64,000 nucleotides of DNA from positions 235,701-299,700 of the forward strand of contig CP060235.1 in NCBI GenBank assembly GCA_023898705.1, given 5' to 3'. Numbering within the stretch: the stretch's first letter is position 1; every line of letters starts with the position of its first letter. Both the position numbers and the translations under genes were made by a program. The notes below the pieces were generated by a model that was not told the DNA's origin, ran no database searches, and worked only from the letters and a program-made list of their open reading frames with translations. The stretch is from Alphaproteobacteria bacterium (GTDB lineage Bacteria; Pseudomonadota; Alphaproteobacteria; CAJXXZ01; 1604HC). This document shows positions 49,782 through 52,135 of the stretch, one piece after another.

Positions 49782-50194
49782 TTAGTTATCCTAATTTTGA
49801 TGTTTCATTGTTTTATTTGTTTTGTTGTTACTGTTTCAATATTTTAAATTGAGTTCTGGAATTGTCTGCGAGTCTCCGTAAGTCAAGTTCTATGTGTTGA
49901 AGCTAAAATGTTTGGTTAAAGTTTTGGCTAGTTTGATTAATGATATTTGTTGATTTGTGATTTTGTTTTCTGATATTTTCACGCCTGGGTTAAAAGTTTT
50001 TTAAATTGGATATAAGTTGTTTTTGTTGAATCACAAATATTATATTGATTTCAAAATTTAAATTTCTACAACTTATTTAAGTGAAAATTTTACTTAATTA
50101 TCTAAGACTTAGATGCTATTTTGTAATTCGACTCAAAAAGGTACAATGCTACTTTTGTGAGAAGTAAGTTTTCTTTTATTTAAATTTAAGAACA

Positions 50195-50974
50195 CTAATT
50201 AGTTTTTTCGACACATCTACGTTTGCTTTTACTTTGCGAATCAGTATCATTTCTAGTATTACGTAATAATCCTACAATCTCCTCATATCCATTATCTGAT
50301 GCCAACATTAGTGCCGTCCAACCAGCATCATCTTGCAAACTAACCTGTGCACCATAATCAAGAAGCATTTTTACAACATCCTCATCCCCAACTTGTGCTG
50401 CCAACATTAGAGCTGTTTGGCCATCTCTATCGTGTGAGTCAACATTTGCACTATAATCAAGAAGCATTTTTACAATATCTACATATGAATTGAGAGCTGC
50501 ATTCATTAGAGCTGTTACGCCCTCCTCATTTTGCAAATCAACATTTGCACCATGTTTAAGAAGCTTTTCTACAACATCTACACGTCCGTCTTCTGATGCT
50601 CGCATTAGAGCTGTTACGCCACGCTTATTTGGTAAATTAATATTTGCATCTTTAGCAAGAAGCTTTTCTACAATTTCTGAACATCCGGCTTCCATTAGAG
50701 CTGTGTTGTGCCACGACCCTTCCTGCAAATCAACCTTTGCACCATGTTTAAGCAGCTCTTCTACAACATCTATATGTCTCATGAGTGATGCTCGCATTAG
50801 TGCTGTGTAGCCACGACAATTATATAAATTAACATCAGCTCCATTTGCAATTAGGAATTGCACAGTTCCAAGATGTCCATTCCGAGATGCAAGCATTAAC
50901 GGTGTGTCCCCAACAATACAATTTAAATCATTTACTAATATCAAACTGAGTATGCTTGTTTTAAAATTCAACAT
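50195..50974 (-). CDS. Ankyrin-repeat protein (paralog A2) with leader and basic Cys tail
   Basis: 259 aa with about 7 ANK units. Leader MLNFKTSILSLILVNDLNC and tail SQSKSKRRCVEKTN. Confidence 0.9.
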   Translation of the reverse strand: MLNFKTSILSLILVNDLNCIVGDTPLMLASRNGHLGTVQFLIANGADVNLYNCRGYTALMRASLMRHIDVVEELLKHGAKVDLQEGSWHNTALMEAGCSEIVEKLLAKDANINLPNKRGVTALMRASEDGRVDVVEKLLKHGANVDLQNEEGVTALMNAALNSYVDIVKMLLDYSANVDSHDRDGQTALMLAAQVGDEDVVKMLLDYGAQVSLQDDAGWTALMLASDNGYEEIVGLLRNTRNDTDSQSKSKRRCVEKTN

Positions 50975-51027
50975 GTTTAGTTATAACATAGTGAACAAGC
51001 AATTAAAACAAGAAATATAGTTATAAA

Positions 51028-51984
51028 TCAGCGAGCTTTACGGTTGTCTTCTAGATATTTTACAACTTTGCTGTGTCCATTTTCTGATGCTAACATTAGT
51101 GCTGTTTTGCCCCATTTATTCTGTAGATCAACATTTGCACCGCGAGCAAGAAGCATTTTTACAACATCGCTATGTCCCATTTTTGATGCACACATTAGAG
51201 CTGTTTTCCCCCATTTATTCTGTAGATCAATATTTGCACCGTGATTAAGAAGCATTTTTACAACATCCATATGGCCATTTTTTGATGCACACATTAGAGC
51301 TGTTTTGTCAGATATATCCTTTAAATCAACTTTTGCGCCATGATCAAGGAGCAATTTTACCACATTGAGATGCCCTCCTTGTGATGCCCAAATTAATGCT
51401 GTTTTCCCCCATGTATCCTTTAAACCAACATTTGCACCATGATCGAGGAGCAATTTTGCCGCATCGAGGTGCCCATACTCCGATGCACACATTAGTGCTG
51501 TAAATCCGTGGTCATCTTCTAAATTAACTGTTGCGCCACGATTAAGAAGCATTTGTATGACTTCTAAGTTTCCTGTTAGTGATGCGCACATTAGAGCTGT
51601 AAATCCATAATCATCCTGTAAATTAACTGTTGCATCACGATTAAGAAGCATTTGTATAATTTCCACGTTTCCTCTTGCTGATGCCCACATTAGTACCGTT
51701 CTACCAAATTGATCCTTTATATCAACATCTACAGTGTGACCAAGAAAAAATTTTATAATCTCACCGCTCTCGTTTGACACCTTCATCAGTGATATTGGTC
51801 CATAATCATTGTTAACGTCGACATACTTAGACATATTACGAATACTTTTTACATTCCCATACCGTGCTAAACACATTAATGAAGCACCTCTGGCAGACAT
51901 AAGTGAACCACAATTTAAATTACTTGCTATGACCATAGCAAATATTATTTTATGTAAATTGTTTTTATGTAAATTGTCAAACAT
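51028..51984 (-). CDS. Ankyrin-repeat protein (paralog A3)
   Basis: About 8 ANK units, including near-identical neighbouring units. Leader ...KIIFAMVIASNLNC. The start is taken at MFDNLHK (the internal M of the 324-aa ORF). Confidence 0.9.
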   Translation of the reverse strand: MFDNLHKNNLHKIIFAMVIASNLNCGSLMSARGASLMCLARYGNVKSIRNMSKYVDVNNDYGPISLMKVSNESGEIIKFFLGHTVDVDIKDQFGRTVLMWASARGNVEIIQMLLNRDATVNLQDDYGFTALMCASLTGNLEVIQMLLNRGATVNLEDDHGFTALMCASEYGHLDAAKLLLDHGANVGLKDTWGKTALIWASQGGHLNVVKLLLDHGAKVDLKDISDKTALMCASKNGHMDVVKMLLNHGANIDLQNKWGKTALMCASKMGHSDVVKMLLARGANVDLQNKWGKTALMLASENGHSKVVKYLEDNRKAR

Positions 51985-52135
51985 AACTAGATAGTAAACC
52001 AACTTTACAAATAATCAAGTTATGGTAAAAATTTAGCCATAAACTATAGTCTGTAAATTTATTGATTAATTTTGCCTATGATTTATATCACTGGGTATCT
52101 TTGTATTTTTCAATTTATTTGCTATCTTATTTACT

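Follow-up and report, generated by a model that had tools for sequence, protein, structure and literature searches.

Two antisense ankyrin genes between rpsE and rplO

The window studied here is a 64-kb stretch of contig CP060235.1 (assembly GCA_023898705.1) which carries the ribosomal protein gene cluster of a fast-evolving Holosporaceae endosymbiont related to Candidatus (Ca.) Cytomitobacter, with a genome of 558,489 bp. The subject of this report is the gap which separates rpsE (ribosomal protein S5) from rplO (L15) in that cluster, at positions 49782-52135. Two intact genes for ankyrin-repeat proteins, ankA and ankB, lie in this gap on the minus strand, antisense to the cluster. The original prediction, made from the sequence alone, had described two minus-strand ankyrin genes of 259 and about 318 amino acids (aa) together with about 410 bp of AT-rich DNA free of open reading frames (ORFs), and both parts of this description are confirmed. 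The ORF list agrees with the Pfam and NCBIfam searches, ankA and ankB being the only minus-strand ORFs of at least 60 aa in the gap, and the AT-rich stretch, measured at 413 bp with a GC content of about 0.27, holds no ORF of at least 60 aa, its sole entry in the ORF list being 30 aa long. Membership in the ankyrin family is clear from the Pfam scores, which are 176 bits for ankA (Ank, PF00023, cutoff 21.1) and 302 bits for ankB (Ank_2, PF12796, cutoff 27.3). For ankB, an upstream TTG start would give an ORF of 324 aa (51028-52002), and the ATG at 51984 is favoured by comparison with the paralogues.

Scans for tRNAs and Rfam families found nothing inside the gap, and Pfam applied to its three plus-strand frames at E <= 10 returned zero families. 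The AT-rich spacer, in which the transcripts of rpsE and ankA converge, contains neither an RNA family nor a recognisable intrinsic terminator, and in the terminator and structure searches of both spacers nothing rose above shuffled sequence, save a weak z-score of -2.6 for 52003-52135. The arrangement is reproduced in an independent short-read assembly of run SRR12358675 at 99.9% identity, where Logan contig L090 corresponds to window 49405-51131 and L001 to window 51726-54233, so that jointly they cover both junctions of the insert. Since both junctions are bridged by two independent contigs, the arrangement is not a misassembly. The coordinates of the features are given in Table 1.

Table 1. 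Features of the rpsE-rplO gap, its flanking genes and the related sites of the ribosomal cluster in the window.
Feature	Position	Strand	Description and support
rpsE (S5)	49197-49781	+	Pfam Ribosomal_S5 N- and C-terminal domains; last gene of the proposed rpmC-to-rpsE module
Convergent AT-rich spacer	49782-50194		From the rpsE stop to the ankA stop
Degenerate relic of the last 40 nt of rpsE (49741-49780)	49879-49914	+	Repeat D4; Smith-Waterman alignment
ankA	50195-50974	-	259-aa ankyrin-repeat protein; Pfam Ank, E = 1e-53; exact copy on Logan contig L090
ankA/ankB spacer	50975-51027	-	53 bp; contains the promoter-like motif of ankA
ankB	51028-51984	-	318-aa ankyrin-repeat protein from the ATG at 51984; Pfam Ank_2, E = 9e-92; 5' end on Logan contig L001
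Divergent ankB/rplO spacer, lineage-specific part	51985-52098		No counterpart in the spacers of relatives
Ancestral rplO-proximal element	52099-52132	+	Six-genome alignment A3; resembles an extended -10 promoter
rplO (L15)	52136-52603	+	TIGR01071, 133.8 bits (cutoff 77.95); homologues in relatives; first gene of the proposed rplO-secY-adk module
ankC	45063-45551	-	162 aa from its ATG; between rplP and rpmC; N-terminal motif and C-terminal tail like those of ankA
Ankyrin fragment	45596-45733	-	45 aa; pseudogene relic adjoining ankC
Conserved block of ~44 nt upstream of rpmC	45958-46001	+	Alignment A4; kept in six clade genomes
ankD	56933-57822	+	ankA-type paralogue right after rplQ; two overlapping ORFs with a frameshift near 57383
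ankE	57866-58801	+	ankB-type paralogue; family N-terminal Cys motif

The junction without L30 in related symbionts

The gene for ribosomal protein L30, rpmD, stands between rpsE and rplO in many Alphaproteobacteria, including the Holosporaceae metagenome-assembled genome (MAG) L074 and the Rickettsiales MAG L012. We searched for it with a custom hidden Markov model (HMM) of 19 L30 sequences, of which 18 were alphaproteobacterial sequences from the loci examined and one was the E. coli sequence. While the positive controls (L010, L012, L074 and L091) gave E values of 1e-25 to 1e-30, the HMM found no match in the rpsE-rplO gap; its best hit in the six-frame translation of the whole window had E = 5.8, i.e., no L30, and none of the clade loci at rpsE/rplO contains L30 either. 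The earlier statement that the gap has no L30-like ORF therefore holds, since the HMM search and the plus-strand Pfam frames both came back empty, and no intact rpmD was found in 49782-52135. L30 is among the most frequently lost ribosomal proteins, with losses recorded in Neorickettsia sennetsu, Ca. Fokinia solitaria, Blattabacterium and Mollicutes (bioRxiv 10.1101/2021.01.31.429008). As a loss in reduced genomes, the Cytomitobacter clade is one more case, subject to whole-genome confirmation, and there is nothing unusual in it.

Members of Cytomitobacter are fast-evolving Holosporaceae endosymbionts of diplonemid protists with genomes of about 0.6 Mb. By S5, the closest relative of the window is L005, an 11.5-kb contig (73% identity), followed by Ca. 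Cytomitobacter primus (70%) and Ca. C. indipagum (64%). The genes rpsE and rplO are 46 bp apart in L005, where the cluster is fully collinear, and 130 bp apart in C. primus, and there is no ankyrin gene and no rpmD between them in either. In C. indipagum, rpsE is followed by genes of a type VI secretion system (T6SS), and rplO-secY-adk is located elsewhere, after an uncharacterised gene; in a 619-kb genome, unknown ORFs and then frr come after rpsE, and rplO stands after ruvC. The 622-kb genome L094 has about 2.9 kb inserted at the junction, in the order rpsE, an ORF with RGG repeats, an antisense hybrid histidine kinase and rplO, while L008, the second symbiont in SRR12358675, shows no rplO in the ~0.5 kb between rpsE and the contig end. 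A search for ankyrins in the syntenic loci of the relatives (L002-L009, L092-L094) gave no match. Four loci of distant alphaproteobacterial MAGs (L006, L007, L014, L088) have rpsE and rplO 8-17 bp apart, again with no rpmD.

The original prediction held that the ankyrin genes had taken over the site where rpmD lay. This part does not survive the synteny comparison, in which the clade was without rpmD at the junction throughout and the spacers of the relatives were free of ankyrins, the intact junctions of L005 and C. primus having neither. Because the relatives already lack rpmD at this junction, the loss of L30 would be older than, and unrelated to, the ankyrin insertion; judged by synteny, the ankyrin genes did not displace L30, and the causal link to rpmD fails.

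Among the fetched loci, alterations of the cluster in the clade are confined to rplP/rpmC and rpsE/rplO, plus a break after adk in C. indipagum. At rplP/rpmC, C. primus has a GyrI-like gene, the window has ankC, and the cluster is broken in both C. indipagum and L008. The rpsE/rplO gap is thus a recurrent point of insertion and breakage.

The place of insertion follows from the 46-bp spacer of L005, which matches window 52099-52132 with a Smith-Waterman score of 53 (shuffle mean 19.3 +/- 3.1) and has no alignment on the rpsE side of the gap. Since it matches solely next to rplO, about 2.3 kb entered between the rpsE stop and the rplO element. The test for a mobile element or island found no flanking direct or inverted repeats, no integrase or transposase (Pfam on the plus-strand frames, the minus-strand ORFs of at least 60 aa being the two ankyrin genes) and no nearby tRNA, and the sole footprint is one-sided. 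It is the degenerate relic of the rpsE 3' end listed in Table 1, whose score of 43 (shuffle mean 19.9 +/- 2.4) was equalled by 0 of 300 shuffles, and which we read as a trace of the rearrangement by which the junction was opened. The left spacer was also searched for a further relic, either a copy of the ancestral spacer or a tandem duplication, and this was rejected with neither being significant; 18 nt at 49915-49932 match a stretch inside rpsE with marginal significance (20 of 500 shuffles reached this score).

Several further observations concern these genomes. The runs SRR12358675 and SRR12358676 (L008, L009, L001, L090) contain two Cytomitobacter-like symbionts, with S5 proteins 100% and 60% identical to that of the window, respectively, and two symbionts in one run may match the diplonemid strain hosting two Cytomitobacter species that was reported in a preprint. 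Two ribosomal proteins of the window score under their NCBIfam equivalog cutoffs, S5 with 154.6 bits (cutoff 164) and L14 (46344-46751) with 100.6 bits (cutoff 111.1), due to the very fast protein evolution of the lineage. In the window (39917-39961) and in C. primus (L002, 369-416), rpsJ comes right after fusA, and there is no tuf gene in between. A distant alphaproteobacterial MAG without L30, seen in two samples, has a stretch of 1.25-1.46 kb between rplP and rpmC with no called gene (L006 1382-2632, L007 1171-2632); its length varies between the samples, and its sole larger ORF, 142 aa on the minus strand, has no Pfam match.

The element before rplO and the ankyrin family

What the relatives share at this junction is a short block next to rplO. 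In six genomes, conservation upstream of rplO is found within the last 40 nt, with none farther out, and the clade consensus reads CTTTGT-N15-22-TGnTATCTT-N6-7-ATG, the TGnTATCTT part being invariant in all six (alignment A3). In the window the element consists of CTTTGT (52099-52104), N15 and TGCTATCTT (52120-52128), ending 7 nt before the ATG. Searched for as a composite pattern with N16-22, it occurs once each in L002, L005, L092, L093 and L094, always right before rplO; the window copy, having N15, is missed by this pattern and was placed from alignment A3. In genomes where the cluster has been rearranged, no copy of the composite motif follows rpsE. As the element is kept whatever its upstream neighbour is (rpsE, ruvC, an uncharacterised gene, a kinase or ankB), it travels with rplO. 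In each of the six genomes it contains the sigma-70 extended -10 arrangement, TGn directly before TAnnnT, and in five of the six there is no Shine-Dalgarno-like motif between it and the ATG. It looks like an extended -10 promoter, and because it ends 6-7 nt before the ATG, the rplO-secY-adk transcript may be leaderless or near-leaderless.

Since the rplO-proximal element is conserved whatever lies upstream, the rpsE/rplO junction appears to be an old boundary between transcription units. The block before rpmC is likewise kept although the genes preceding it differ, and would mark the second of these module boundaries. In L005, whose cluster is intact, the four longest spacers are rplP/rpmC (124 nt), rpsE/rplO (46 nt), rpsS/rplV (76 nt) and adk/rpsM (70 nt), with nearly all of the remaining genes abutting or overlapping. 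Elsewhere in the window, many genes that follow a true spacer, several of them first in their operon (e.g., 62042-63049, 25492-27183, 3189-3698), have TAnnnT at a distance of 3-9 nt from the ATG and lack a Shine-Dalgarno motif, which hints at frequent leaderless or short-leader mRNAs and may be chance in AT-rich DNA.

The ankyrin genes of the gap are part of a family which comprises five genes and one fragment, distributed over three sites in or beside the ribosomal cluster; by tblastn, ankyrin coding sequence in the window is limited to 44994-45733, 50198-52002 and 56918-58540. The claim that the gap is the second interruption of the cluster by the same family was correct, with ankC and the fragment lying between rplP and rpmC, and there is a third site after rplQ (56933-58801). 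Pairwise identity within the family is 43-59%, which indicates old paralogues. The GC content at third codon positions (GC3) of ankA, ankB and ankC, 0.24-0.26, equals that of the neighbouring native genes, so there is no sign of a recent foreign origin. Database homologues of ankA are generic ankyrins, the best of them 37-46% identical, with no close orthologue, and are uninformative on origin. The GC3 skew was tried as a clock for inversion and rejected: ankA and ankC have a skew of the plus-strand type, which vanishes at four-fold degenerate sites and thus reflects amino acid composition. In the DNA of ankA and ankB the repeats have a period of 99 nt, with copies 60-83% identical; the encoded repeats are near the eukaryotic consensus, and the best matches among solved structures are ankyrin-1/2 (E = 6e-94) and DARPins.

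All five genes share the N-terminus M-x-x-F-K/R-hydrophobic(9-11)-(N/D)-L-(N/S)-C, with the Cys at position 19-25. It is signal-like in ankA (MLNFKTSILSLILVNDLNC, Cys19), and in ankB it reads MFDNLHKNNLHKIIFAMVIASNLNC (Cys25); the form NL[NS]C is present in four of the five and is otherwise missing from the window. The proteins of ankA (SKSKRRCVEKTN), ankC and ankD have a basic C-terminal tail in common, S-K-x-K-R-(R/G)-C; ankE ends in a hydrophobic region of ~90 aa that looks membrane-spanning. The frameshift site of ankD, CTTATTTGG, is not a long homopolymer, and either decay to a pseudogene or an error in the sequencing probably lies behind the split. When the upstream regions were aligned, a -10-like hexamer appeared 5-6 nt before the ATG in all five genes, in the extended form TGTTA(T/G)AA(T/C) in ankA, ankC and ankD, and as TA(C/T)TAT in ankB and ankE. 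On the minus strand, the motif of ankA is TGTTATAAC at 50988-50980, 5 nt before the ATG, and that of ankB is TACTAT (51996-51991) with TTGATT 16 nt farther upstream. Each copy seems to carry its own putative promoter, and for this reason we propose that ankB and ankA are each expressed on their own, in antisense orientation to the cluster.

The N-terminus points to export by the Sec pathway, and the invariant Cys might be lipidated. Secretion-related genes in the window comprise those of the T6SS membrane-complex proteins DotU and IcmF (Pfam matches) and the next ORF (10494-15907), as well as those of SecY, SecG and a POTRA-domain (BamA-like) protein. A third ORF follows the DotU-IcmF pair in the window, and in C. 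indipagum (L003) such a trio, with an ImpA_N protein as its third member, sits directly after rpsE. The effector-like character given to the ankyrins in the original prediction can be upheld, and most likely the proteins interact with the host, the repeats serving for binding either in its cytoplasm or on the surface of the symbiont. The main texts of the clade genome preprint and of the Holosporales review do not contain the word "ankyrin"; neither "L30" nor "rpmD" occurs in the main text of that preprint, and a supplement to it has none of "ankyrin", "L30", "rpmD" and "rplO".

ANK gene families are well known in obligate intracellular bacteria, e.g., the ANK genes of Wolbachia and Rickettsiales, AnkA of Anaplasma and the Ank effectors of Legionella and Coxiella. 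The family described here resembles them in comprising several lineage-specific paralogues with eukaryote-like consensus 33-aa repeats in an obligate intracellular bacterium, in its birth-and-death turnover (a frameshifted copy and a fragment) and in its presumed binding of host proteins. Unlike the known effectors, however, the window ankyrins match no specific effector family: against the named Dot/Icm Ank families of NCBIfam (T4SS_AnkX, AnkY, AnkH and others) they scored 25-127 bits, with cutoffs of 450-1400, and the best of these scores (85-127 bits) cover the shared ankyrin repeats only. They also differ from effectors of type IV secretion systems (T4SS) by a short hydrophobic signal-like N-terminus with an invariant Cys and by having no known T4SS signal. 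As a further difference, the Cytomitobacter clade is reported to keep Sec, remnants of a type II secretion system and type IV pili, and a modified T6SS (George et al.).

Insertions before rplO are also of a known kind. In other Alphaproteobacteria (Rhodobacterales, Sphingomonas, MAGs), among the matches listed, rpmD-rplO is opened by 0.4-4.7 kb with unrelated genes, often on the opposite strand, and the remaining cluster is collinear, as in the window. The cargo there consists of genes for metabolism or signalling, namely an aldehyde dehydrogenase, adenylate cyclases (minus strand), an acyltransferase and GFA rather than ankyrins, and those genomes keep rpmD, unlike the window. As antisense and unrelated cargo is common upstream of rplO, an antisense insertion at this place is ordinary for Alphaproteobacteria. 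The nearest parallel within the clade is the sister genome ERZ25333236 (L094, 621,866 bp), whose insert at the same junction also includes an antisense gene and leaves the same rplO element in place, although its cargo, the RGG-repeat ORF and the hybrid histidine kinase, has no ankyrins. Neither the ankyrin family nor the insertion before rplO, therefore, is a new kind of system.

Two observations were made on the cargo of L094. The gene right after rpsE (7159-7923) encodes 254 aa made up mostly of GGDRGGRSGGFG repeats (RGG-box-like, of eukaryote-like low complexity) with an acidic tail, and no Pfam match is on record for it. The hybrid histidine kinase/response regulator (8231-9844) is 50% identical to that of the window (58984-60603), and the two stand at different boundaries of the cluster: the L094 gene lies within rpsE/rplO, and that of the window comes behind rplQ and the ankyrin genes.

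Proposed account and its alternatives

Our best explanation as a whole, which we consider probable, combines an early loss of L30, a module boundary with an own promoter for rplO and a tolerated insertion of ankyrin genes. Early loss of L30 in the lineage would have left rpsE adjoining rplO, which kept, or already had, its own extended -10-type promoter TGnTATCTT. The cluster would be transcribed as the modules rpsJ-rplP, rpmC-rpsE, rplO-secY-adk and rpsM-rplQ, and as rplO-secY-adk would not depend on read-through from rpsE, insertions and breaks at the boundary would be tolerated. A lineage-specific family of exported ankyrins may then have placed copies at two module boundaries and at the end of the cluster, with ankB and ankA presumably expressed in antisense orientation to the cluster, each from a promoter of its own, and rplO-secY-adk from the element at 52099-52132. 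To hypothesize further, the promoters lying 6-7 nt from the start codons could produce leaderless mRNAs of rplO-secY-adk and of the ankyrins, and the boundaries could serve as preferred landing pads for host-interaction genes, including Cys-anchored and possibly surface-exposed ankyrins that might attach the symbiont to structures of its host, for instance mitochondria; this extension we regard as doubtful.

Several points weigh against the account. The absence of L30 was established over the 64-kb window, out of a 558-kb genome, and that of ankyrins in the relatives over their syntenic loci. A generic promoter scan found 10 sites, with 11.3 expected from shuffles, and did not flag the rplO element, whose agreement with the consensus is limited to 7-8 of 12 positions; it is conservation and the shape of the motif that carry the promoter reading, and the element could instead be a signal for translation or regulation at the RNA level. 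The terminator searches in both spacers found nothing to stop transcription of rpsE from entering the antisense ankyrin genes. The frameshift of ankD and the one fragment mean that some members of the family are decaying. A canonical lipobox (of the PROSITE PS51257 type) has the form [LVI][ASTVI][GAS]C and ends an uncharged hydrophobic N-terminal segment. The family box (N/D)-L-(N/S)-C is not canonical: position -1 is Asn in four of the five proteins and has an allowed residue in ankC (NLSC) only, and position -3 is Asn or Asp and never L, V or I, so that lipidation is only a possibility. For calibration, canonical lipoproteins were sought in the window and none was found.

Of the other explanations, the most tempting one is that the ankyrin genes replaced rpmD, the insertion either deleting L30 or filling a slot just vacated in this lineage. 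The usual place of rpmD in L074, L012 and many other Alphaproteobacteria and the lack of L30 in the window agree with it, but as all of the clade junctions examined are without rpmD, the intact ones are without ankyrins as well, and the ancestral spacer, free of L30, is still recognisable beside rplO in the window, it is largely refuted and very unlikely. An assembly artefact, with the repeat-rich DNA of the ankyrin genes wrongly joined to the ribosomal cluster, is hardly credible: ankyrin repeats with a period of 99 nt and 60-83% identity between copies can confuse assemblers and the middle of ankB (51132-51725) is outside the independent contigs, yet these contigs run from rpsE through the spacer and ankA into the 3' part of ankB, and from the 5' part of ankB through the spacer and rplO into secY, and both ORFs are intact.

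The ankyrins might also be decaying, functionless paralogues left by a selfish or neutral burst of duplication and tolerated since the site is neutral, which would account for the damaged copies (the frameshifted ankD and the fragment 45596-45733), for the decayed DNA of the 413-bp spacer and for the confinement of all copies to 14 kb. We find this unlikely, because ankA, ankB and ankC (162-318 aa) have stayed intact in a 0.56-Mb genome under strong deletion pressure and have very high Pfam scores; in spite of their low identity, the paralogues also keep the -10-like motif before the gene, the N-terminal motif and the C-terminal tail, which indicates purifying selection. Another option is that the antisense pair is mainly a regulatory device, whose convergent transcription attenuates or insulates the transition from rpsE to rplO, the proteins being secondary. 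The head-on orientation, the convergent spacer with no detectable terminator and the antisense gene at the same place in the sister genome would fit such a device; however, other genomes have no insert or have neighbours on the same strand (ruvC, the uncharacterised gene), and the conserved element before rplO provides a simpler account of rplO expression, which makes a mainly regulatory role highly improbable.

With the early loss of L30 and a tolerated insertion as the preferred reading, the tempting causal story that ankyrins replaced L30 is corrected, as L30 appears to have gone first. These 0.6-Mb endosymbionts of protists do not have their ribosomal supercluster as one unbreakable operon: rplP/rpmC and rpsE/rplO have been broken, rearranged or filled in most clade genomes, and at each of the two a conserved element stays with its downstream gene. 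The most useful by-products are this conserved rplO element and the apparent modular structure of the cluster in the clade, and the previously unremarked ankyrin family, with its distinctive N-terminal Cys motif, provides candidate host-interaction proteins of this symbiosis.

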